Virus record (IMG/VR): IMGVR_UViG_3300045988_106174
DNA: 34,124 nt
Direction: 5' to 3' (one strand)
Source: a virus
A model generated the notes under the pieces. That model had not been told where the DNA came from. It made no database searches and saw only the letters and a program-made list of their open reading frames with translations. Below are positions 1,480 to 34,124 of this stretch, in pieces. Position 1 is the stretch's first letter, and each line of letters begins with the position of its first letter. Position numbers and translations under genes: made by a program.

Positions 1480-1725
1480 TCATAATTCCAATTTTTCAGC
1501 CACCCGGCACGCCCTTGTTATGATGCGATCCACTCTGCGGGATACGGTCGAGCGGTCCATATTGAGCTCGACCGCGATGTCGATCTGCGGCATTTGCTTC
1601 AGGATGTACAGCCGCGCGATCGTCGTGTCCTCCGCCCCCAAGGTTGCCTCGTCAAGCACGCGCTCCCAGTCACTTGCCAGCAGGTTTTCCAGCTCCTGCG
1701 GCAGCTTTAAGCGTGCTTTCGGCAT
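1480..1725 (-). CDS. Small sigma-70 region-4-like helix-turn-helix protein (81 aa)
   Basis: The segment ARLYILKQMPQIDIAVELNMDRSTVSRRVDRII looks like a sigma region 4 / ArpU-like HTH. AGGAGGG lies just upstream of the ATG. Confidence 0.55.
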   Translation of the reverse strand: MPKARLKLPQELENLLASDWERVLDEATLGAEDTTIARLYILKQMPQIDIAVELNMDRSTVSRRVDRIITRACRVAEKLEL

Positions 1726-2489: not shown

Positions 2490-2698
2490 GCCTGCGTCCC
2501 TCCGTCCTTGTCCACGGCGTCCTGCATCTTCTGGCTCTGCGTGCCGAAGTAGAACGCGATGATGACCGCATAGATGGTCATGAAGTCTTGCGAGATCTTC
2601 CCGACGATCGCCATGTACGCGAACACCGCTGTCAGCACCAGCGTCACCAGCGACTTGACGCTCAGAAGATTCCCCAGCCGTTTCTTGATTTGTTCCAT
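2486..2698 (-). CDS. Holin (70 aa, two TM helices)
   Basis: Two hydrophobic helices (LVTLVLTAVFAYMAIV and IYAVIIAFYFG) and a charged C-terminus. It lies immediately upstream of the amidase. Confidence 0.7.
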   Translation of the reverse strand: MEQIKKRLGNLLSVKSLVTLVLTAVFAYMAIVGKISQDFMTIYAVIIAFYFGTQSQKMQDAVDKDGGTQA

Positions 2699-2950
2699 TT
2701 AATTTTCCTCCCCATCATTTTTGTCCTTTGCAAACACTCTCTTGAATGCCAGCAGCGCCAGCTCTCCGCCGAAGAACGCCCCGGCAAAGGTCAGCACGTC
2801 CGACAGGTCGCACGTCCAGTCCAGCACCGCGCACAGCGTCTTGAGCACCACCGCCCAGATCAGCACGCCCGTCAGAACGCGGATGCAGTAGATCACGATG
2901 GTCTTTGCCATTTCCCCCTTGCGCCAGCGGCGCTTGTTTCTGAGCATCAT
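2699..2950 (-). CDS. Second holin-like membrane protein (83 aa)
   Basis: The start is taken at ATG 2950, which overlaps the xhlA stop (ATGA). It has a basic N-terminus (MMLRNKRRWRKGE) followed by two hydrophobic helices. Confidence 0.6.
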   Translation of the reverse strand: MMLRNKRRWRKGEMAKTIVIYCIRVLTGVLIWAVVLKTLCAVLDWTCDLSDVLTFAGAFFGGELALLAFKRVFAKDKNDGEEN

Positions 2951-3246
2951 TTCAGCCCCAGCCGCACCAGTGCATACGCGATGAGTCCGCCCACAATCGC
3001 CGTCAGCGCCGTTTTGAGCACCGTGTCCCACGCCTTGCCGGGCTTGTCCCGCAAAGCCTGCACCGAGCTGTCCAGCCGCTCAAAGCGCGTGTTGAGCTGC
3101 TTGAGCTGCTCCGCCATCACCATCACCGAGGACGATAATTCGTGCAAAACCTTGTTGTCCTTCTCCAAGTCCTCGATCCTGCGCTTGTTCCCCTCGCTGA
3201 GTTTTTCCACCCGCGTCATGCGGTGCTCCATGTTGATCTCATCCAT
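2947..3246 (-). CDS. xhlA: XhlA-family protein (coiled coil plus C-terminal TM anchor)
   Basis: 99 aa with an N-terminal heptad-rich helix and a C-terminal TM segment (ALTAIVGGLIAYALV). It holds the typical first position of a Firmicutes prophage lysis cassette. Confidence 0.65.
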   Translation of the reverse strand: MDEINMEHRMTRVEKLSEGNKRRIEDLEKDNKVLHELSSSVMVMAEQLKQLNTRFERLDSSVQALRDKPGKAWDTVLKTALTAIVGGLIAYALVRLGLK

Positions 3247-16669: not shown

Positions 16670-17837
16670 CGCCTCCTTGATCTAATTTTTTCTGGTCGCC
16701 GATCATGTCTCGCGGGATGTAGTTCTCCAAGATGACCAGCTTATCAAGCCCCTCCCGGGGGCTCAGCCCGAGCCAGTCGCGCGCCTCATTGCCGTCCATC
16801 AAGCCGCGGATGTACTGCGCGTCCGCGACCTCCGCCAGCTCCTTGAGCGTGTAGCTGTACAGGCGGCGTGTGGACATAGTGAAGTACATATCCTCGGAGA
16901 TCAGCAGTTTGCGCGTCAACTCATGGCAGATGATGTTCGCCAGTGTGACCGCCGTCGTGCGGATCATGTGATTGTGCTCGGCGTCCGAGTAGCTGCCGAC
17001 GCCCACCATGTACGGCGTCACGCCGACGATGGAGGCGATCTCGCGTTTATCCAGCTCAACGGAATCCTTCAGCGCCAAGTCGTTCAGGCTGAGGGGTTTG
17101 ACCTGCTGGACCTCCATCAGCTCCGCCGGAATGACCCAAGGATCGCCCGCGGCGCTGCCCGCTATGTATTCGTCGATAAGGCGCTTGCGCCCGGCTTCGT
17201 CGGCAAACTCCTCGGCGAGGGAATCCACCTTGACGATGACGCTCGGCTTCCACTTGTCGGACATAAAGCCCTTTTTGGTCGCCGCCGCCTGCCGGAGGTT
17301 TGCGGTCACATCCCGCAGGCTCACGCGCAGCCCTACACCGCGCCACGGCTGCATCGGGTCGCACCAGCGCTTAAAATGCAGCACACTGTCGGACTCGTAG
17401 CGCCGCCCGCGCCACATCACATAGTAGGTCTGCCCGAGGTCGTCGCTCATGGCGTAGGCGTCCGGCATCGGCTCAAGGTCCGACAGCAGCCCGTTTGCCG
17501 TGTGCGGCAGCATGAATGCACTACCGCAGGAGCTTGTCAGCATCGTCCAGACGATCCAGGACACGAGATCCTTGCGGCTGCCGTTGCGCCACGGCGCGAT
17601 GTCCATAAACCGCGAGAGTTGATTGCGCACGCGCACATCGCCGCTTGCAGTGTTCCGCATGAGCTGGATCGTCGCGTTCGATACGATGTCCGCCAGCCCG
17701 CCGATTGCCGCGAGCACGTCCGGGCTGTCGATCAGCCGCGTGTATCCGGGGACGGACAGCGTGTCCGAGCCCGCCAGCCCGATCATAAATTTTTGCAGCT
17801 CGCTCGAAGCATCGCGTCGCTGCGGTTTGACTCTCAA
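16653..17837 (-). CDS. Portal protein, HK97 family (394 aa)
   Basis: It lies directly after the terminase (ATGA overlap). Its size and sequence are typical of the Phage_portal family. Confidence 0.85.
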   Translation of the reverse strand: MRVKPQRRDASSELQKFMIGLAGSDTLSVPGYTRLIDSPDVLAAIGGLADIVSNATIQLMRNTASGDVRVRNQLSRFMDIAPWRNGSRKDLVSWIVWTMLTSSCGSAFMLPHTANGLLSDLEPMPDAYAMSDDLGQTYYVMWRGRRYESDSVLHFKRWCDPMQPWRGVGLRVSLRDVTANLRQAAATKKGFMSDKWKPSVIVKVDSLAEEFADEAGRKRLIDEYIAGSAAGDPWVIPAELMEVQQVKPLSLNDLALKDSVELDKREIASIVGVTPYMVGVGSYSDAEHNHMIRTTAVTLANIICHELTRKLLISEDMYFTMSTRRLYSYTLKELAEVADAQYIRGLMDGNEARDWLGLSPREGLDKLVILENYIPRDMIGDQKKLDQGGGDNAE

Positions 17838-19951
17838 TCGGCATCATCCTCTCTTGCTTTTTTGTCATACCAGCCAGCCGCCTTATTGCTGGCGGTGAGA
17901 TCTTCGAGATATGCGCACACGGCAAAAACAGAGGCGTCAAAAAGGTCGATGCGCAGATTCTGCTCGATCTTCTGATACATCACCATGTCGTCGGCTTTCT
18001 CAATACCGGCGACGTTCTGCACGCAGTACTCATACGGCTCGGCGTGCAGGTAGTAGAGTGTTCCCTTCTTCGCGCTGGCCTCCAAGTATCGGAAGCCCTC
18101 GGACTTCCGTGTGAAAAGCTGCGGCTGGTCTTTGATCGGGAAGCGCTCGTTTTTCATCTCCACGAAATACTCGCGGCAGAATTTTCGGTCGTGTCCGATC
18201 CGGCGGATCTTAAAGCCGGAGGCGCGCAGCTTTTTGTACCAGCACACCACGTCGTGATAGTTCGTGACGGCGTCGTTGGTCATATCCAGCCAGCCGTCCT
18301 CCTGCCAGCCGAATAGTGGGATCTGATCCTGCTGCGCCTTGATAACAGCCGCCGGGCGCGGAAACCACGCGTGCGGGATGACGATGTCCACGCCCTTGTA
18401 GTGCCCAAAAAGGCATCCAGCGGTCAGGTCGTGCAGCTTCGACAGGTCCGTGCCGCCGTACCAGCGGATCGGCAGCTTCGCGAGCTGCGCGATCGTCCAG
18501 TCGTATTTCTCATCGCTGCGGCGGAACTCCTGAATGTCGAACCACGCCTTGACGGCGTTCGTCGTAACGTTGAGGCTCTTATTCAAAAACTCCGGGCGGA
18601 GCGCGGGATTGTCCGCCGCCATGGCAGCGTCGTTGATCATGTCCTGCGGACGGATGGAATAGCCCCATCCGGGGGACGCCGCCTTCAGCACGGCAGGGTC
18701 GTGCAGGTCCACATCGCCGTTTTCCAGCGTCGGCGCGGAGCAGAGAAAGCAGAAGATCGAATCCGCCGCGTCGCCCGTGACCGTGCCGCGCAGGATTTTG
18801 CGGCAGTAGGCCAAATGCCCCAGCAGGAAGCCGCGTGCATTCGGACCGTTGGACGAGATGATAATGACGAGCTTATTCGTGTATGCCTTGGTCGCGTCCT
18901 TTAGGATCTGATACTGCTGCGGGCTTTTGTAGGTGTGCGCCTCGTCGGCGATGACGATGTTGCAGTTGAAGGAGTCCTGCTTGTCGGGGTTTGCCGCCAG
19001 AGCGTTGATGGAGATCATGCCGTCTCCGATGTCGCCGGAGATGGAGCACTCCATGTTGTTGTCGATGATGCGCAAGCCCTGATTCGGGTCGTCCTTCACC
19101 GTCACGCCGAGGCGGTTGAAGTTGTACTTGAGAAAGTCAAACCCTTCGAGTGCCTGCTTGAGCGCACCGCCGACCTCGTACACCTTCGAGCCGGACGCGC
19201 GCTCGTACATCGCCAGCGCGGCAGCGAGGGAGGCAGCGAACGTCGTTTTGACGTTTTTCCGCGGGATAAAATCAACGGCCTCCTTAAAGCGCCGGATTTT
19301 CGTGCCCGGCAGGTAGAAACCCATGATGTTGTAGACGATGAACTTGTGGTATGGCAGGAGCAGGAACGGCGTGCCGCGCAGCGGCGTCGCGTCCAGGAAC
19401 TCACCCTGCCGGTGACACATCATCGTCTCGATGATGGCAATGATGTCGTTCGCAGGCTCGGACCGAAATTCCCACTTGCCGCAGGCGAGATCTGCGACGT
19501 ATCGCTTGCAGGCAAGCACCGCGTCCTCGCATAGCCCGGACTCGCCGGACAGGACGGAGTTTACAAACGCGTCCACGTCGCGCTGGTACTGGGCAGCGTG
19601 CTCGATCGCATACTCGTGTGCACTCGCGAGGAGCTGCTCGATCTTGCTGTTTCCGGCTGCTGCTGGCTGGAGCTTGGAGCGCGCCTTGTTTAAGCCCGTC
19701 GGCGTCAAGCCGAGCTGATTGCGCAGCCCCTGCACCGTCGCGCGCAGGTCCTCGACCGCCGTCCAGTACGGGCTTTTCGCGGTGTACTCCGCGCCGGTCT
19801 TGTTGACCATCGTGCACACGCGCTGCCCGCCCTGCTTCTTCCACTCCTTTTCGGCGCGGGACAGCTCGCGCTCCGTCTTGGCAAGCTGTTTGATCGTCGG
19901 CTCAAAGATCGCGCCGTATGTGCCGACCAGCTCCATGTCCTTGCGGATCAT
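17834..19951 (-). CDS. Terminase: P27-type small-subunit domain fused in frame to a Terminase_1-type large subunit (705 aa from ATG 19951)
   Basis: The N-terminal ~115 aa (MIRKDMELVGTYG...GLRNQLGLTPTGLNKARSKL) look like a P27-family TerS. The rest (…VLACKRYVADLACGKWEFRSEP…LLPYHKFIVYNIMGFY…VIADEAHTYK…) is TerL. There is no stop codon or plausible internal start between them. The 83 upstream codons of the tracked ORF were rejected. Confidence 0.8.
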   Translation of the reverse strand: MIRKDMELVGTYGAIFEPTIKQLAKTERELSRAEKEWKKQGGQRVCTMVNKTGAEYTAKSPYWTAVEDLRATVQGLRNQLGLTPTGLNKARSKLQPAAAGNSKIEQLLASAHEYAIEHAAQYQRDVDAFVNSVLSGESGLCEDAVLACKRYVADLACGKWEFRSEPANDIIAIIETMMCHRQGEFLDATPLRGTPFLLLPYHKFIVYNIMGFYLPGTKIRRFKEAVDFIPRKNVKTTFAASLAAALAMYERASGSKVYEVGGALKQALEGFDFLKYNFNRLGVTVKDDPNQGLRIIDNNMECSISGDIGDGMISINALAANPDKQDSFNCNIVIADEAHTYKSPQQYQILKDATKAYTNKLVIIISSNGPNARGFLLGHLAYCRKILRGTVTGDAADSIFCFLCSAPTLENGDVDLHDPAVLKAASPGWGYSIRPQDMINDAAMAADNPALRPEFLNKSLNVTTNAVKAWFDIQEFRRSDEKYDWTIAQLAKLPIRWYGGTDLSKLHDLTAGCLFGHYKGVDIVIPHAWFPRPAAVIKAQQDQIPLFGWQEDGWLDMTNDAVTNYHDVVCWYKKLRASGFKIRRIGHDRKFCREYFVEMKNERFPIKDQPQLFTRKSEGFRYLEASAKKGTLYYLHAEPYEYCVQNVAGIEKADDMVMYQKIEQNLRIDLFDASVFAVCAYLEDLTASNKAAGWYDKKAREDDAD

Positions 19952-19980
19952 GTCCTCTCTCGCCAAACGATCACCTCGCT

Positions 19981-20006: not shown

Positions 20007-20314
20007 GCTTGCCCGGCGCTTTCGTGTTTCCGTCGAGGGCTCTGCCAGGCGCGGCTGTCTGCTACCGCGCCCAGTAGGAGGTCACTAACTATGGCGCGGC
20101 GGAAGCTGCCCGACTCCCGCCGCCCGGCACAGCCCTCGACGATCTCTCCGCAGGCGTGTCGCCTACGCCCTCGGTGCATCCCCGCAGGCGCGTCGATCAC
20201 GCCCGCGGTGTGTAATTCCTTGTCGCGCGCGGCCCGCGCGCCTTGCCGGTCTCGCGTTACCCCCTTCCCCGATTTTCCCGCAGTCGGAAAAGTGGGCCAA
20301 CCCCGGTGCTTTGG
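20007..20314. other. Non-coding GC-rich region between HNH and terminase: probable cos/packaging-recognition region
   Basis: I see no credible ORF here. There are two direct 14-mers CCGCAGGCG(T/C)GTCG (20148-20161 and 20182-20195), a related CCGCAGTCGG (20278-20287), and a 16-bp inverted repeat (20031-20046 with 20126-20141, 15/16). The HNH, cos, TerS order is typical of HNH-dependent cos phages. Confidence 0.35.
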
Positions 20315-20608
20315 TCAGAACGGCGGCGGCGAATTGGGAGGGGGGATCACTCGTCGCTGCCACGCGAGACCGCGATCGGTCAGCTTGCCGGTCGTGCGAT
20401 CGTGGAAGCTGTTGTGCGCCGCCTGACTGACCGCGATGAGATTCCAGGAGCACCACTGCCAGCCCGGGAAGTCCTCGACCGGGTAGACATGATGCACGGT
20501 CGTTGCCAGCTCGCGGCGACCGTAGCGCGCGGCATCGCGGCAGTTGAATTTATCGCGCCGCAGCACCGCATTGCGCAGGCGCAGCCAGCGCTTACTCTTG
20601 TAGTCCAT
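20315..20608 (-). CDS. HNH endonuclease (packaging-associated, 97 aa)
   Basis: The sequence MDYKSKRWLRLRNAVLRRDKFNCRDAARYGR...TVHHVYPVEDFP...NLIAVSQAAHNSFHDR is a typical phage HNH. It sits immediately upstream of the cos region and terminase. Confidence 0.85.
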   Translation of the reverse strand: MDYKSKRWLRLRNAVLRRDKFNCRDAARYGRRELATTVHHVYPVEDFPGWQWCSWNLIAVSQAAHNSFHDRTTGKLTDRGLAWQRRVIPPPNSPPPF

Positions 20609-20610
20609 GC

Positions 20611-20653
20611 AAAAACAAAAAGCGCCAAGACCTCTCAACGGAGATCCTGGCGC
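20611..20653 (-). terminator. Intrinsic terminator T2 (minus strand)
   Basis: The stem is GCGCCAGGA...UCUUGGCGC with an inner GAGA/UCUC helix. It is followed by UUUUUGUUUUUG, and the U-tract ends 2 nt before the HNH ATG. Confidence 0.55.
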
Positions 20654-20680
20654 TTATGCCATCCGGCTATCACCTCGGCT

Positions 20681-20734
20681 GCAAAACAAAAGCGCCAAAC
20701 GATCTACCGCCTTCACGGTCAAATCATTTGGCGC
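20681..20734 (-). terminator. Intrinsic terminator T1 (minus strand)
   Basis: The stem is GCGCCAAAUGAU...AUCGUUUGGCGC (12 bp, one G:U pair) with an inner CGGU/ACCG helix. It is followed by UUUUGUUUUG. The 5' arm includes the KTR stop codon. Confidence 0.55.
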
Positions 20735-20891
20735 TGGCTCTAAGGCTCTGGCTCATATTCACGTTTACGATCGACTCTCGCTTGCACAGCTTGCAGTACA
20801 GCGGGAAGTCCGTCAGCGTAGTGGACGGTCGCACGCGCTGTTGCGTTGGGCGTCCGCACAGCGGGCAAATCAGTTTACCCTCCGCTGACAC
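20724..20891 (-). CDS. Cysteine-rich KTR-domain zinc-ribbon protein (about 55 aa from GTG 20891; alternative TTG at 20924)
   Basis: GKLICPLCGRPTQQRVRPSTTLTDFPLYCKLCKRESIVNVN matches the CPxCG...FPLYCxxCK...NV pattern of the Cys_rich_KTR family. The start codon is uncertain because there is no in-frame ATG. Confidence 0.6.
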   Translation of the reverse strand: MSAEGKLICPLCGRPTQQRVRPSTTLTDFPLYCKLCKRESIVNVNMSQSLRASAK

Positions 20892-20895
20892 TAAC

Positions 20896-20924
20896 AGTAT
20901 ACCACGGCGTTCATTCGATTGCAA
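20896..20924 (-). promoter_or_regulatory. Sigma-A-type promoter with extended -10 (TTGCAA, 17 nt spacer, TGgTATACT)
   Basis: The -35 is at 20924-20919 and the -10 at 20901-20896, with TG at 20904-20903. The predicted transcript start falls at or next to the GTG at 20891. Confidence 0.45.
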
Positions 20925-20973
20925 GAGTTTTTGTCGCTCCTTCCCATTATTTATATATTGTTTCAAGTCAAAA

Positions 20974-21693
20974 TTATATGTGTGAAGTTGTGATTTCCGG
21001 GATTTCAAAGTCAAACGTCGTGAACGTTCCGAAGGTGTTCTCAATGCGTTCTGGGAATTTTGCGCCCTCGAACGCGGTCGCGCCGCTCGGCGGCTGGTAG
21101 TGCTCGCCCGGCGCAAGCTCGATGTCGTTGCGCTCCGGCTGGATCAACCCCTTGCTCGGCGTCCACATCCGAGCGCCGACGCGTAGTTTGCCGGTCTTGC
21201 GCGGTTCTTTGGTCATGTATCGCGCGACCGCGCGATAGCCGCCGAACTCGCCGATCGTCTGTATATCGACGTAGCCCTTTTGCCACAGATCAGCGAAGAG
21301 CTGCCGCGTATCGCCTGGTGCACGTTTGGTGACGAAGTGGTGATGTACACGATGCTCGCCGTGCAAGCCTTCCATAACATAGACATAATCAAACGGCAGC
21401 CCCGCGGCTCTGCGATGCGCGCGCAGCTTGCGGAAGTACGCCGGTTGATTTTTCCGCGCCGCGTCAAATCCGGGCGGCAGATGCCAGTCGTCATAGGTGA
21501 GCGTCACAAACCAGTCCGTCAGCGCGAAGTTTGCATAGAGCAAAAACTCCAACCGCATACACGCGGTCTTGATGTTGACAGCCTCCTGCACGAGGCTTGT
21601 TTCAAATTGCCGCGCCGCTCGCGTGCACGGGCGAGCCGGCGCGGACGCCAGCTCGATTGCCCGCACGCGGTTGCCTGCGCGAAGTTCGATCAC
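20974..21693 (-). CDS. HUH-type rolling-circle replication initiator-like protein (239 aa)
   Basis: Three motifs occur in the canonical order: FVTLTYDD (motif 1), RVHHHFVT (HUH-like motif 2) and AVARYMTKEPRK (catalytic Tyr motif 3). Confidence 0.6.
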   Translation of the reverse strand: MIELRAGNRVRAIELASAPARPCTRAARQFETSLVQEAVNIKTACMRLEFLLYANFALTDWFVTLTYDDWHLPPGFDAARKNQPAYFRKLRAHRRAAGLPFDYVYVMEGLHGEHRVHHHFVTKRAPGDTRQLFADLWQKGYVDIQTIGEFGGYRAVARYMTKEPRKTGKLRVGARMWTPSKGLIQPERNDIELAPGEHYQPPSGATAFEGAKFPERIENTFGTFTTFDFEIPEITTSHI

Positions 21694-25016: not shown

Positions 25017-26045
25017 TCAGCCCTCCTTTTCCAGCGCTGCCGCCATTTTGGCGACTGCGTCCCGCGAGAAACGCAGGAGCTTGTCGGCTTTGTCGGCATC
25101 ACGGAGTTTGACTTTGGTGAGCAGGCCGCAAGCCTTGTTAAAATTCTCAAGCGTTGCCTGGAAAAAGCTCTGGAACACAGCGACGTCGGCATCCGACTGG
25201 ATACTGCTTTCCTTCTGCGCCTTGTTGGCATCTGTTCTGACCCGCTCCAACTCCTTCTGGAGAGCAGCGAGTTTCGCGTTCAGCGCATCCTCTTTGAGTT
25301 TTCCGCTGTTCACATCACTCATAGCCCTTGCGACTTCCGCCTGAAGCTCCACTTGCTTCTTCTCTGCCGCTTTTCGTAGGCGCTCGGCGGAGTCCAGCGC
25401 AGCCTTGTGCTTTTTCTCAGCGGCGGCGAGCGCCTCGGCGACGGCCTTTTCGATCTCTGCCGGGTCGGCTACCTGCACGGCAACTTCTACAGGGCGGTTT
25501 TCCAGCTCGCGGATCTGCTCCGCCTGCTTTTCCGTCCGCTCCGTGAGCTGCACTGCGGCGCTTTGCGCCTCTTCCAGCGCCTTGCGCGCCTCATCGCGCT
25601 CGCGGATCGCCTGCTCCAGCTCACGGGAGGACAGGTGCTCGGCGTCTACCGTCTGTGCAAACTCTTCGCGCTCATCCTCGGGCACTGCCAGCAGCCGCAA
25701 AGCATTGGAAACGCTCAAATTTCCCAACGTTGGGAAATTTGACGTTTTGCCGCCGTATTCCCGCGCGATCTGCATAAAACGGTTAGCCGACGAACTCGAA
25801 AACTCTGTTTCATTTTTCAAAAAATCAAGCCATCCGCCATGACCGACCATTTCCTTTGCCTCGGCGAGGCGCTTACCGATCTCCACGCCGAACCACACCG
25901 TCATGCTCTTCGCCTGCGCGGAGAGGTAGCGGATCTCGCTGCCGAGCGTCTCGGGCGAGCGCGGCACATCGACCGCCTGCCCCGGATGCACCTGCATATC
26001 CTTGCGGGTCTCGTCGGCAAAAATACTCGATACGTCAAATGCCAT
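25017..26045 (-). CDS. DUF3102-domain protein with a long C-terminal coiled coil (342 aa); candidate centromere-binding partner of ParA
   Basis: IGKRLAEAKEMVGHGGWLDFLKNETEFSSSSANRFMQIAREYG matches the DUF3102 signature. The gene begins 4 bp after the parA stop and contains palindrome copy 3. Confidence 0.7.
   Translation of the reverse strand: MAFDVSSIFADETRKDMQVHPGQAVDVPRSPETLGSEIRYLSAQAKSMTVWFGVEIGKRLAEAKEMVGHGGWLDFLKNETEFSSSSANRFMQIAREYGGKTSNFPTLGNLSVSNALRLLAVPEDEREEFAQTVDAEHLSSRELEQAIRERDEARKALEEAQSAAVQLTERTEKQAEQIRELENRPVEVAVQVADPAEIEKAVAEALAAAEKKHKAALDSAERLRKAAEKKQVELQAEVARAMSDVNSGKLKEDALNAKLAALQKELERVRTDANKAQKESSIQSDADVAVFQSFFQATLENFNKACGLLTKVKLRDADKADKLLRFSRDAVAKMAAALEKEG
25715..25742. 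repeat. Palindrome copy 3 (perfect 28-bp TCAAATTTCCCAACGTTGGGAAATTTGA), inside the DUF3102 gene
   Basis: It is self-complementary over 28 bp and encodes ...SNFPTLGNLS... in the DUF3102 frame. Confidence 0.95.
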
Positions 26046-26048
26046 TGC

Positions 26049-26849
26049 TTACGCCCCCTCTCTCAAAAGCTCATCCATCGTGACCGGCGGCGCAATGTAC
26101 TCCTGCACGAATGCGCGGTAGTCATATCCGGCAGCGCTGCGCGGGGAGTACAGTGCGATCGGCTTGCGCTCAAAGGTCATTTCATCCACCTTGTCGGTGC
26201 GGCGGATGACCGTCTGGAATACCGGCAGAATGTTGCAGCCGCGCAGGCTGCTCTCTGCCTGGAGCACGACCGGCGTGTTGCGCCACATCGTGATGAGTGC
26301 CCCGGCAATGCGAATGCTGCTGTTGATACGCTGAATGTTGTCGATTTGTCGCGCCACGTTGGCGAGCCCGCGCACGGAAAATGCGTCGAGCTTGATCGGG
26401 ATGATGACCTCATCCGCGGCAAGCAGCGCTGCGGCGCTTGCGGCGTTAAATGCCGGCGGGCAGTCGAAGATCACAAAGTCATACGCGTCATCCTCCCGGA
26501 TCGCCGTGCACAGATCTGCGAGGACGCGCCCGTGCACGCGGTTGTCAGCGATGTGCGACATATCGAGGTCCATCAGCTCATCCGATGCCGGGATCATGTC
26601 CAGCCCCGGGTAGTCCGTCGCGTACACGTTTTCGGGGTAGTACGGCTCGGCGTCACCGCGCAGGATGTCATCCAGCGTCGAGCCGTCCACGGAGCGCAGA
26701 CCGAAAAATTCGGTTGCATTGCACTGGCTGTCGCAGTCTACCAGTAGCACGCGCTGCTTATGGTCGGCGCACAGGATGTGCGCCATATTGACGGCGGTGA
26801 CGGTCTTGCCGACGCCGCCCTTCAGATTCAAGATTGCAATTGCTTTCAT
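26049..26849 (-). CDS. parA: ParA/Soj-type partition ATPase (266 aa, short type without an N-terminal HTH)
   Basis: It has the deviant Walker A MKAIAILNLKGGVGKTVTAVNMA and the motifs LLVDCDSQCN and FVIFDCPPA. AGGAGG lies upstream of the ATG. Confidence 0.9.
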   Translation of the reverse strand: MKAIAILNLKGGVGKTVTAVNMAHILCADHKQRVLLVDCDSQCNATEFFGLRSVDGSTLDDILRGDAEPYYPENVYATDYPGLDMIPASDELMDLDMSHIADNRVHGRVLADLCTAIREDDAYDFVIFDCPPAFNAASAAALLAADEVIIPIKLDAFSVRGLANVARQIDNIQRINSSIRIAGALITMWRNTPVVLQAESSLRGCNILPVFQTVIRRTDKVDEMTFERKPIALYSPRSAAGYDYRAFVQEYIAPPVTMDELLREGA

Positions 26850-30258: not shown

Positions 30259-30397
30259 ACTCGCCGAGCCTCTGCCAGTCCACCGGGGCGATTGCCCGGG
30301 GAGCGACTTCGATGCTGACCTCGCTCGGTGTCAAGAGCGCTTCCAGTGCAGCGATTCGGCGCTCAAGCTGGCGCAAGCGTTGTCTGCGTACTTTCAT
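30191..30397 (-). CDS. Possible small coiled-coil protein (68 aa, MKVRRQRLRQLERRIAALEALL...)
   Basis: GGAGGG lies 8 nt upstream of ATG 30397. The first half is a plausible helix. The last third is low-complexity and antisense to the plus-strand gene, so the true end is uncertain. Confidence 0.4.
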   Translation of the reverse strand: MKVRRQRLRQLERRIAALEALLTPSEVSIEVAPRAIAPVDWQRLGEFTRRHRNNPPATDDTESDTKAT

Positions 30398-30596
30398 CCG
30401 TGCTTCCCTCCTCGTAGAGATCGTCGATGCTGCATTGCAGCGCCTTCGCCAGCGCTGGGAGCTGGGACGCGCGCGGGTACGCCGCGCCGATCTCCCATTT
30501 TGCGACGGTGCTCCGCTCGACATTCAGCAGATCAGCGAGTTCCTGCTGTTTGAGCTTCGCCCGTTTTCGCATACGGACCAGTCCTTTCGTATACAT
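30363..30596 (-). CDS. Cro-like XRE-family HTH regulator (77 aa; may start at the internal ATG, MRKRAKL...)
   Basis: KLKQQELADLLNVERSTVAKWEIGAAYPRASQLPALAKALQCSIDDLY is a canonical HTH_3. It is the first gene of the leftward operon, divergent from the CI-like gene. Confidence 0.7.
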   Translation of the reverse strand: MYTKGLVRMRKRAKLKQQELADLLNVERSTVAKWEIGAAYPRASQLPALAKALQCSIDDLYEEGSTDESTQTTLAPA

Positions 30597-30650: not shown

Positions 30651-30679
30651 AATATAGCATGCTTACTCACATTTGTCAA
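30651..30679 (-). promoter_or_regulatory. Leftward early promoter (TTGACA, 17 nt spacer, TATATT)
   Basis: On the minus strand the -35 is at 30679-30674 (perfect TTGACA) and the -10 at 30656-30651. Confidence 0.6.
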
Positions 30680-33957: not shown

Positions 33958-34124
33958 TCATTTTTCCGCGATGCACCGATAATACGCCGCGATTTTCTTT
34001 TCCGTACCGCCGCCGTCGCGATCCATCAAAAACGCCTTTGCCATCTTTGCGTAATAGTCCGGGCGATCCACGCCGTACTCGCGCGCGACCGCGCAATAGT
34101 CCGAGTAGATCATATTCATCGCCG
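33958..34124 (-). CDS. C-terminal part of the wrap-around hypothetical gene (see 1-432); 34006-34124 duplicates 1-119
   Basis: The TGA is at 33960-33958. The frame is continuous with the minus-strand frame that leaves the window at position 1. Confidence 0.6.
   Translation of the reverse strand, partial: AMNMIYSDYCAVAREYGVDRPDYYAKMAKAFLMDRDGGGTEKKIAAYYRCIAEK
34006..34124. repeat. Terminal direct repeat, copy 2 (identical to 1-119)
   Basis: Exact 119/119 identity with the window start. Confidence 0.95.

Follow-up and report, generated by a model that had tools for sequence, protein, structure and literature searches.

A predicted promoter-terminator gate at a zinc-ribbon gene, between the early and late operons of a temperate gut phage

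The timing of late genes in temperate phages of the dominant gut Clostridia is the wider subject here, and the virus record IMGVR_UViG_3300045988_106174, a stretch of 34,124 nucleotides analysed whole and here called the window, raises the question of how RNA polymerase reaches a late operon that appears to have no promoter of its own. At the junction, a promoter, a small gene for a Cys_rich_KTR zinc-ribbon protein (KTR), two intrinsic terminators (T1 and T2) and an HNH endonuclease gene follow one another on the minus strand, at the place that an earlier note had given (20611-20924). We compared this gate region across about 100 related loci; the window has no DNA similarity to deposited phages, and a scan of genome contigs with the KTR alignment returned only four loci. 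All related KTR phages share the promoter-terminator arrangement, among them Cormatin, a cultivable Flavonifractor phage whose host is the OMM12 model strain Flavonifractor plautii YL31, and it is present in dozens of gut viral contigs. We read the junction as the gate between early and late transcription in a temperate siphovirus of Oscillospiraceae that packages its DNA by cos, an explanation that, taken whole, seems to us possible rather than probable. Judged from sequence, its central part, that late-gene expression is gated by terminator read-through, is rather probable; that KTR would be the factor that opens the gate is a tentative proposal.

Two sources of transcription lead into T1 and T2, an early operon of about 10 kb and a conserved sigma-A-type promoter, P_KTR. 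The features on this side of the terminators are:

30651-30679, minus strand: early promoter TTGACA-17-TATATT, upstream of the cro-like gene, with 11 of 12 consensus matches and a TG
30363-30596: cro-like HTH gene
20974-21693, minus strand: last early gene, encoding an HUH rolling-circle Rep-like protein (PF23343, E = 2e-13; phrog_3584, replication initiation protein, E = 3e-44)
20937-20942, minus strand: Shine-Dalgarno sequence AAGGAG, 12 nt upstream of the TTG of the 66-aa KTR
20896-20924, minus strand: P_KTR, with -35 TTGCAA, a 17-nt spacer and extended -10 TGgTATACT
20724-20924, minus strand: Cys_rich_KTR zinc-ribbon gene (PF14205, E = 1e-14), with stop codon TGA at 20726-20724

The earlier claim of a near-consensus, extended -10 promoter firing into a KTR gene without an ATG holds (20924-20896; PF14205, 54.5 bits against a cut-off of 25.5 bits). 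The -35 hexamer TTGCAA (20924-20919) doubles as the TTG start and a Gln codon of KTR, and with the TG (20904-20903) and the -10 TATACT (20901-20896) the promoter sits inside the KTR gene, in an N-terminal extension. The canonical KTR genes that we compared have neither this extension nor an internal promoter. Because the genome holds 14 promoter-like sites against 6.9 ± 2.9 in shuffles, a single match such as P_KTR is not above chance, and conservation is what counts. Of the 19 loci, which represent at least ten clades, 18 retain the pattern TTGC(A/G)(A/T)-17 nt-TA(T/A)A(C/A)T, with unrelated spacers; the -10 variants TATACT, TAAACT, TATAAT and TAAAAT encode IL, KL, IM and KI, respectively, so that the residues vary while the exact 17-nt spacing is constant. 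P_KTR carries no CI-operator-like words in common with the immunity region, and it therefore looks constitutive; CI control of the promoter was rejected on the same ground.

The KTR frame comprises 66 codons from the TTG at 20924, the start used by gene callers, or 55 from a GTG at 20891, and its homologues are called as 66-72 aa. Most clades have a purine-rich Shine-Dalgarno sequence 5-12 nt before the TTG, as in Cormatin (GGAGGTGA-6 nt-TTG); in L080 the distance is 0 nt, and the called ORF starts further upstream there. This purine-rich block precedes the -35 and might be where an activator binds, not a Shine-Dalgarno sequence, and that counts against our explanation. In seven clades, no in-frame ATG, GTG or TTG occurs from the predicted transcription start to the first Cys. 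The window's clade has an in-frame GTG at or near that start, and its P_KTR transcripts might encode the 55-aa KTR; this counts against a gate with KTR as its opener, since a constitutive P_KTR encoding the 55-aa protein would mean that the regulator is made in lysogens. The likely source of read-in transcripts able to translate full-length KTR is the early promoter ahead of the cro-like gene.

KTR has two CxxC pairs with the invariant cysteines C20, C23, C44 and C47. In place of the canonical CGNKTR it has CGRPTQQR, the KTR tripeptide after the first CxxC being missing, and it is, judged by these residues, a divergent phage subfamily of PF14205. The AlphaFold model is a four-stranded zinc ribbon (mean pLDDT 70), for which a PDB structure search gave generic zinc-ribbon matches only (best E = 0.79); a PDB profile search gave nothing below E = 0.03, KTR has no PHROG match, and its Pfam matches are limited to PF14205 and generic zinc ribbons, with none to the Ltr families. 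Nucleic acid binding by KTR is a supposition of our explanation, and the structure model is a generic zinc ribbon with no significant structural or profile match; both points count against that explanation. The literature on 'cysteine-rich KTR' gave nothing on function, and the Cormatin ORF is annotated as a 'translational regulator'. A comparison by hhalign with Com, the translational activator of Mu, gave a probability of 8% over 10 columns, and we rejected kinship of KTR with it. We also rejected KTR as an accessory of Rep, which occurs without KTR in L061, as KTR does without Rep in Tn916-type loci.

The KTR slot is the one that late regulators of the sigma-r4/DUF1492 type occupy in the relatives L061, L074, L076 and L079, and in relatives with a DUF1492/sigma-r4-like gene a comparable extended -10 motif is present, as is a hairpin ahead of HNH. 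The sigma-r4-like protein of the window itself, which the earlier note had listed as a candidate antitermination factor, is an HTH protein of 81 aa with a weak Sigma70_r4 match (E = 0.018); its gene (1483-1725) lies at the opposite end of the late operon.

The KTR gene runs into the two terminators:

20683-20735, minus strand: T1, intrinsic terminator with a hairpin at 20735-20691 and a U-tract to 20683 (-31.1 kcal/mol, z = -5.5)
20610-20655, minus strand: T2, intrinsic terminator with a hairpin at 20655-20620, a 15-bp stem and a U-tract at 20619-20610 (-27.8 kcal/mol, z = -5.1)

Both had been proposed as intrinsic terminators with a shared motif, and their folding energies bear this out, as none of 200 shuffles of either folds as stably. 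No other minus-strand terminator candidate of the genome is as strong as T2. T1 shows compensatory changes between clades, and T2 has six different stem sequences, all of which fold. RNAalifold on a MAFFT alignment recovered the outer T1 stem alone; T2 was misaligned between clades, and the stems were therefore compared clade by clade. The KTR stop codon is located within the T1 5' arm, which reads AGCGCCAAAUGA... in the RNA. T1 and T2 share GCGCCA...TGGCGC-TTTT, with AGCGCCA around the embedded stop codon common to both, and this sharing reflects a duplication. By comparison between clades, T2 is a clade-specific copy of the 5' part of T1, inserted between the ancestral HNH Shine-Dalgarno sequence and the HNH ATG; it is absent in L063, L077 and Cormatin. 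The 5' arms of T1 and T2 vary in step from clade to clade, and in each of the eight clades the T2 5' arm pairs with the 3' arm of T1 (-29 to -38 kcal/mol, z -2.4 to -4.8), an attenuator-like geometry. This match of the arms may be a mere relic or by-product of the duplication, which counts against our explanation.

From T1 onwards, the region leads through the start of HNH and across cos into the structural operon:

20663-20682, minus strand: element (UGCA)CCGAGGUGAUAGCCGG, a small stem-loop presenting the perfect Shine-Dalgarno sequence AGGUGAU (20675-20669)
20654-20662, minus strand: start-stop mini-ORF AUG-GCA-UAA, 7 nt after the Shine-Dalgarno sequence, its stop overlapping the first bases of the T2 5' arm
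20315-20608, minus strand: HNH endonuclease gene, the first past the gate and the last before the virion DNA end (phrog_119 and phrog_144, E = 1e-15)
20296-20314: cos region and physical end of the genome, about 9 nt beyond the HNH stop codon, the end falling directly after ...TGACCAAAGCAC
17834-19966, minus strand: fused small (P27-type) and large terminase ORF, the start of the structural operon (PF05119, PF03354 and PF20441 in one ORF)

The HNH ATG at 20608 stands 2 nt past the T2 U-tract without an adjacent Shine-Dalgarno sequence, as had been described. The earlier statement that HNH lacks such a sequence altogether needs correction, however: a perfect one, AGGTGAT, is conserved 57 nt upstream, ahead of T2, and directly abuts the HNH start in L063, L077, L090, L093, L095 and Cormatin. 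The element that presents it is invariant in nearly all of about 55 loci, with variable flanks, and it is the ancestral HNH ribosome-binding site. The mini-ORF that follows begins with ATG or GTG in the window's clades and with ACG or CTG in the L030 and L034 clades; in L008-type loci it stops at a UGA within the T2 arm, which parallels the position of the KTR stop in T1. Numerous related contigs, 36-38 kb long, terminate at cos, with L018 and L035 running straight on into Illumina adapter sequence, and relatives carry the same small-large terminase fusion.

No sigma-A-type promoter was found after T2, and the 350 nt that separate HNH from the terminase gene are GC-rich and hold no promoter-like site, which sustains the view that the terminators leave no room for a late promoter beyond them. 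With no such promoter after T2, and with cos following HNH, the late genes are most likely gated by read-through: lacking a promoter of its own, the HNH-cos-terminase-structural-lysis operon would be transcribable only by RNA polymerase that passes T1 and T2. In relatives with T1 only, the Shine-Dalgarno sequence and HNH ATG come directly after the U-tract, so that read-through appears unavoidable there too. We rejected a late promoter between T1 and T2, because relatives without T2 have the conserved element there as the ribosome-binding site of HNH; a leaderless HNH promoter in the T2 tail, which offers no acceptable -10 sequence; and a gene-60-like translational bypass from GCA to GCA across T2, whose landing frame does not match HNH. 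Neither operon contains a strong internal terminator; the 20-kb late operon has weak terminator-like sites near the shuffle expectation, and the terminator counts of the genome are likewise near it.

On the explanation that we favour, P_KTR transcripts would begin downstream of the TTG and form a short terminated leader unable to encode full-length KTR, which would be made from early read-in transcripts only, after induction. KTR, a basic zinc ribbon, would act on the nascent arms of T1 and T2 at the AGCGCCA that they share around the embedded stop. The terminators would then fail to form, or pairing between the T1 3' arm and the T2 5' arm would replace them, and P_KTR-driven transcription would extend into the late genes. 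Such terminator-specific antitermination would follow a lambda-like logic, with an early regulator, a constitutive late promoter and a terminated leader, built from unrelated parts.

The earlier note had likened the junction to lambda PR'/tR' and suggested processive antitermination. The architecture supports the likeness: as in the lambda system of Q, PR', the 6S leader and tR', a regulator gene lies at a late promoter that looks constitutive, a leader of about 200 nt (here about 200-280 nt from P_KTR to the terminator or terminators) ends at an intrinsic terminator, and an apparently promoter-less late operon would be transcribed across cos. The processive part is not supported by the sequence, and we hold it to be the least likely of the explanations weighed here. 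It would have polymerase that started at P_KTR modified by a phage protein, in the manner of lambda Q, or by leader RNA such as put, conAn2 or Tn916 canT, and so ignore T1, T2 and later terminators. In its favour, beyond the order of promoter, short leader, terminator(s) and long operon, the whole leader folds more stably than shuffles (z = -4.9), and RNA or bipartite antiterminators are documented at the starts of long operons in Gram-positive mobile elements (PMC8191782; PMC11658703). Yet Pfam searches of the window's ORFs, in one case judged by the 25 most frequent families listed, gave no match to PF06530 or another Q family, nor to PF17362, and the sole match to the Q family (PF06530) is a weak one (E = 0.033) in a DUF1492-like protein of a relative. 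Nothing in the window reached the gathering score of an Rfam family, the matches in the region from a relaxed scan (E up to 5) being all far below it, a negative limited by the possible absence of canT and conAn2 from Rfam. For the Q-binding element and the sigma-dependent pause signal of lambda, the clades compared yielded no conserved counterpart: TAAACT, which might serve as a -10-like pause element early in the transcript, occurs at about +15 to +20 in the window and the L034 clade only and is not conserved in other clades. Here, moreover, the promoter lies inside the candidate regulator's ORF and the terminator over that ORF's stop codon, and nothing indicates processivity, which a 20-kb late operon free of strong internal terminators would not require. 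RNA acting in cis alone would give constitutive read-through from an apparently unregulated promoter. The conAn element of pLS20 and canT of Tn916 resemble the present locus in that a cis-acting element heads a long operon of a mobile element from Gram-positive bacteria, and conAn consists of a small protein together with the RNA downstream of its gene (PMC8191782); they bypass many unrelated terminators, which is not indicated here, where there is also no match to ConAn1 (PF17362) and the leader is much shorter than conAn2 (260-600 nt). The geometry of the locus points to control at the hairpins themselves, with a stop in the T1 5' arm, the alternative T1/T2 pairing and a mini-ORF on the T2 5' arm.

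Such control might need no dedicated protein factor. In ribosome-coupled attenuation, a ribosome at the KTR stop or on the mini-ORF would block the 5' arms, the T1 3' arm and T2 5' arm would pair, and both terminators would fail; untranslated transcripts, for example from P_KTR, would terminate, and late expression would track translated early read-in. We judge this unlikely, even with the evidence that speaks for it: the stop codon in the T1 5' arm, found at this position far more often in KTR loci than in controls (17/29 against 1/107); the four-segment geometry in eight of eight clades, with 2:3 pairing at -29 to -38 kcal/mol; the perfect Shine-Dalgarno sequence, 7-nt spacer and AUG-GCA-UAA that abut T2; and the L008-type mini-ORF ending at UGA within the T2 arm. 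A trp-type attenuator likewise has four segments, with two terminator-type hairpins, an alternative 2:3 pairing and an upstream ORF that ends in segment 1, but here a conserved folded domain stands in the place of the 'leader peptide', hairpin 1:2 forms a full terminator by itself and there are no regulatory codons. Attenuation would leave KTR, a conserved folded Pfam domain, without a role beyond that of leader peptide, and the strongly conserved P_KTR without any, and the mini-ORF start is ACG or CTG in two clades in which the Shine-Dalgarno sequence is invariant. The host is a Firmicute, and Firmicutes are not known to couple transcription closely to translation, which also counts against attenuation. 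About equally unlikely, in our estimate, is ordinary insulation, whereby T1 and T2 would merely end the early operon and the KTR gene, KTR would have an unrelated function, and the late genes would be expressed through constant leaky read-through amplified by replication or from a type of promoter that the scans do not recognise. Terminators between phage modules are common, a hairpin and T-tract stand directly before HNH also in relatives without KTR, and the genome's near-shuffle terminator counts fit this account. However, relatives whose conserved element abuts the HNH start rule out a promoter between T1 and T2, and the GC-rich 350 nt past HNH contain cos and no promoter-like site. Insulation would also leave unexplained the conservation of an intragenic promoter, a duplicated terminator with co-varying arms and the family-wide linkage of KTR to terminators.

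That linkage was seen across PF14205. A terminator accompanies 22 of 29 KTR loci against 12 of 107 neighbouring genes, and the 17 KTR loci with the stop codon in a terminator 5' arm, against a single neighbouring gene, include the Tn916 orf6 position. The phage clades examined have the stop in the T1 5' arm, except for the L094/L086 type, in which the hairpin starts 1 nt past the stop. Stop codons that overlap terminators can reflect genome compaction, which counts against our explanation.

Among known late regulators of Gram-positive phages, the Ltr superfamily (RinA, LtrA/Sigma70_r4, LtrB/DUF1492, LtrC and ArpU) comprises activators encoded upstream of terS (PMC3753634). KTR resembles them in lying directly upstream of packaging genes, here HNH and terminase, with a terminator between regulator and packaging genes. 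It differs in being an unrelated zinc ribbon and in gene order: the Ltr arrangement is gene, terminator and Ltr-dependent promoter, whereas here promoter, gene and terminator(s) follow one another with no promoter after the terminator.

Tn916 orf6 is also a small zinc-ribbon ORF of PF14205 with its stop codon in a terminator arm. It lies at a junction where downstream regulatory genes are proposed to be turned on by read-through, and activation of the element is proposed to begin with transcription that reads through from Ptet (bioRxiv 10.64898/2026.10.01.756105). Canonical orf6-type genes differ from the phage gene in having a normal Shine-Dalgarno sequence and ATG, a single terminator, no internal promoter and a conserved tail, EPDAKTQSR, and the known antiterminator of Tn916, canT, is a separate RNA element elsewhere in it. 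We speculate, with considerable doubt, that Cys_rich_KTR proteins could form a new family of antiterminators or read-through switches, small zinc ribbons whose target would be the terminator at the 3' end of the gene that encodes them. Many gut phages of Oscillospiraceae would then use the module, joined to an internal late promoter, as their master late switch; in Tn916-type elements (orf6) it would control the resistance-gene read-through with which excision and transfer begin. Should the unit of KTR and terminator prove to be such a switch, it would provide a function for PF14205, a widespread uncharacterised family whose member orf6 lies on the proposed read-through path to transfer of a clinically important resistance element, and would add a compact read-through control device, with a promoter inside the regulator gene and a terminator over its stop codon.

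One further motif, probably not part of the gate, lies between Rep and KTR:

20958-20970, minus strand: conserved motif GACTTGAAACAAT in the AT-rich Rep-KTR spacer

Within it, CTTGAAA(C/T) is kept in all clades, and in several a GC-rich palindrome precedes the motif, which is probably a Rep nick site or origin.

All features of the passage into the late genes lie on the minus strand, in the following order:

HUH Rep-like gene (PF23343, phrog_3584), minus strand, end at 20974
AT-rich spacer, minus strand, between the Rep end and the promoter
Sigma-A-type promoter (P_KTR), minus strand, -35 TTGCAA at 20924-20919, 17-nt spacer, extended -10 TGgTATACT to 20896
Cys_rich_KTR zinc-ribbon ORF (PF14205, E = 1e-14), minus strand, stop TGA 20726-20724
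Terminator T1, minus strand, hairpin 20735-20691 and U-tract (-31.1 kcal/mol, z = -5.5)
16-nt element CCGAGGTGATAGCCGG, minus strand, 20678-20663
Terminator T2, minus strand, hairpin 20655-20620, U-tract to 20610 (-27.8 kcal/mol, z = -5.1)
HNH start ATG, minus strand, 20608, 2 nt after the U-tract of T2

The promoter (20924-20896), zinc ribbon, tandem terminators and 2-nt gap before HNH had all been described in the earlier note, and each description holds. The folding energies that it had asked for are listed with the hairpins; for each of T1 and T2, none of 200 shuffles folded as stably. Of all minus-strand terminator candidates in the genome, T2 is the strongest, and no second strong terminator besides T1/T2 was found in the early or late operon. 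Downstream of HNH lie a terminase ORF that fuses the small and large subunits, then head and tail genes and an amidase; no promoter-like site was found in the GC-rich 350 nt from HNH to the terminase start (TTG 19966). As read from this layout, the late genes would be transcribable only through T1 and T2, and read-through of the pair is probably the regulated step.

The ends of the window overlap by 119 nt, and the assembly is therefore circular and complete, at about 34.0 kb. The phage is temperate, encoding an integrase and a CI-like repressor, and a near-consensus early promoter (30679-30651) lies upstream of its cro-like gene; the early genes, including DnaB, ParA, DUF3102 and others, are all on the minus strand. 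Many related 36-38 kb contigs terminate 9-11 nt past the HNH stop, at ...TGACCAAAGCAC (L018, L035, L022, L023, L030, L037, L038; window equivalent about 20296-20314), and two related contigs pass straight into Illumina adapter sequence at the same end. These contig ends and adapter junctions place the virion DNA end (cos) at about 20306, a physical end that separates HNH from the terminase gene. The right arm has HNH as its last gene, and late transcription must cross cos, like in lambda and HK97.

Using an HNH-based search, we collected 80 viral loci, of which about 59 carry KTR directly 5' of HNH; Oscillospiraceae genomes supplied more KTR prophages. The window's order of Rep, KTR, terminator and HNH recurs in Cormatin, a deposited Flavonifractor phage known as an induced prophage of F. 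plautii, an OMM12 strain (PMC10197239). Because related sequences are not independent, clade counts rather than locus counts carry the argument.

Comparison among these relatives indicates that P_KTR is selected as a promoter. In 18/19 loci, from at least 10 clades, a -35 of TTGC(A/G)(A/T) is followed by a spacer of exactly 17 nt and a -10 of TATACT, TAAACT, TATAAT or TAAAAT, usually with the extended -10 TG, while the spacer sequences are unrelated from clade to clade and the -10 codons vary among IL, KL, IM and KI. No CI-operator-like words were found at P_KTR, which looks constitutive. The TTG of the -35 lies in the KTR frame, and most clades have a purine-rich Shine-Dalgarno (SD) sequence 5-12 nt upstream of it, which Cormatin carries as a perfect GGAGGTGA 6 nt from the TTG. 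Gene callers place the start at this TTG, giving a protein of 66-72 aa; start codon and -35 hexamer thus coincide. The predicted transcript start falls about 30 nt into the ORF, and in seven clades this transcript has no in-frame ATG, GTG or TTG ahead of the first Cys. In the window's clade a GTG coincides with the predicted transcript start or lies close to it, corresponding to the 55-codon form of the earlier note. Canonical KTR genes, sampled from 200 Clostridia genomes, have an ordinary SD and ATG 6-8 codons before CxxC, with neither N-terminal extension nor promoter found; the phage extension therefore seems to exist for housing the promoter.

The association of KTR with a terminator is family-wide. 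Taking as terminators hairpins of -10 kcal/mol or stronger that carry a T-tract and lie no more than 95 nt from the stop, we found one in 22/29 KTR loci from Clostridia genomes and in 12/107 neighbouring ORFs of the same loci; the stop codon lay in the 5' arm in 17/29 and 1/107, respectively. For canonical members, the outer stem consists of the final codons (...CAG AGC CGA TAA; protein tail EPDAKTQSR). The 3' end of these genes, about 30 nt before the stop in L096-L121, shows nucleotide-level conservation as GAGCCAGACGCAAAGACGCAGAGCCGA-TAA, contains a tandem AGACGCA repeat, and is kept despite an earlier stop or another reading frame (L107, L109, L118, L124); it may constitute an independent RNA or DNA element. 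One canonical locus has the Tn916 regulatory layout, with an EF-G-like ribosomal-protection gene, KTR, a convergent HTH gene, the Rfam element SQ2397 and a Sigma70_r4 protein. KTR here corresponds to orf6 of Tn916, for which current models of activation have Ptet read-through reaching orf7 and orf8 (sig7-8) (bioRxiv 10.64898/2026.10.01.756105). Other canonical KTR genes lie 3' of MATE, ABC, MFS or tet genes. Rfam SQ2397 and pemK RNA motifs were seen near KTR in Tn916-like contexts, and c-di-GMP-I riboswitches adjoin KTR upstream in L117 (1318-1406, plus strand) and downstream in L120 (1311-1399, minus strand); the loci with such RNA elements further include L096 (2078-2307), L106 (839-1076), L100 and L105.

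T2 is evidently a clade-specific duplicate of T1. In L063, L077, L090, L093, L095 and Cormatin only T1 is present, and GGAGGTGATAGCC(C) and then the HNH start come directly after it. The window's clade has about 55 nt more, T2 and its U-tract, between the old SD and the HNH ATG; where HNH once started there is now a mini-ORF, AUG-GCA-UAA, with a stop codon that overlaps the 5' arm of T2 in its first bases. This arm copies that of T1 (GCGCCA-UGAU...), stop-codon context included; a longer duplication in L080 takes in the KTR 3' end. The SD element is invariant, although two clades have drifted to ACG or CTG at the mini-ORF start. A single clade (L019, L025-L029, about 2990-3003) has a second SD of its own, GGCGGTGA, after T2 and ACG rather than ATG at the HNH start position; in its member L025 the upstream SD element is mutated to GAAATGA. 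The window's HNH has no SD next to its start; we infer that the ancestral SD and mini-ORF, which lie ahead of T2, may load ribosomes that re-initiate at HNH across the folded hairpin.

The two hairpins hold up as real structures: each of six distinct T2 stem sequences folds, as do several versions of the T1 stem (-22 to -33 kcal/mol), and RNAalifold found compensatory columns in T1. The T1 3' arm also pairs with the T2 5' arm and loop in 8/8 clades (segment energy -29 to -38 kcal/mol, z -2.4 to -4.8), with the SD stem-loop at the apex, and from clade to clade the 5' arms of T1 and T2 vary together. T1 and T2 thereby present as a four-segment system, whose pairing may be either selected or a by-product of duplication.

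KTR occupies the slot of known late regulators. Relatives without KTR (L061, L074, L076, L079) encode, directly 5' of HNH, a DUF1492/Sigma70_r4-type protein of 128-151 aa (Pfam E = 9e-5 in L076, weaker or absent in the others), which we assign to the LtrB/LtrA class of late activators in phages of Gram-positive bacteria (PMC3753634). The same four loci have an extended -10-like motif, GTGRTATTATG, similar to the window's CGTGGTATACTG, then a hairpin and T-tract immediately 5' of HNH. L056-L060, also without KTR, have an approximately 430-nt non-coding stretch 5' of HNH (about 2570-3000), behind a small HTH gene, with a very stable predicted fold (-188 kcal/mol). The sigma-r4-like protein that the earlier note had listed among candidate antitermination factors is a poor candidate because its gene comes after the endolysin, in the distal part of the late operon; it is an 81-aa HTH protein (1483-1725, minus strand) with weak sigma region-4 similarity (Pfam E = 0.018).

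We tentatively favor a model, judged somewhat less likely than not, in which KTR is the late regulator acting on the terminator arms of P_KTR transcripts. KTR would be made solely from early read-in transcripts, since RNA from the late promoter lacks its start codon, and would target the nascent arms of RNA begun at P_KTR, which looks constitutive, probably in a hairpin-specific rather than processive manner. The logic would be that of lambda, with an early-made regulator, an unregulated late promoter and a terminated leader, but with components unrelated to lambda's. We found no biochemical information on KTR proteins in the literature, and structure and profile searches returned generic zinc ribbons only. 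Ribosome-coupled attenuation without a protein factor is an unlikely account of T1 and T2, and plain insulation with leaky read-through is about as doubtful. True processive antitermination of the conAn or canT kind (PMC8191782, PMC11658703), exerted by some protein or by an RNA in the leader, seems less likely again. Of these readings, KTR acting on the arms remains our preferred one.

Elsewhere in the window, the gene for the 81-aa HTH protein is followed by a terminator (about 1441-1476) and three genes without known function. A DUF7841 gene is split over the window ends (1-435 and 33958-34124, minus strand). The small terminase domain (P27-type) and the large one form a single ORF (17834-19966, minus strand), a fusion of about 710-735 aa also seen in L004, L009, L031, L040, L053 and L063; in Cormatin the subunits are two separate genes. 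This integrase-bearing phage also encodes a partition-like pair, a ParA-type ATPase and DUF3102 (25017-26849, minus strand), and both DnaB-based and Rep-based replication sets. Just past Rep lies an (AT)CTTGAAA(C/T) motif (20958-20970, minus strand), conserved upstream of KTR in L081, L087, L080, L090 and L093 and preceded in several relatives by a GC-rich palindrome; it is likely a Rep nick site or origin.
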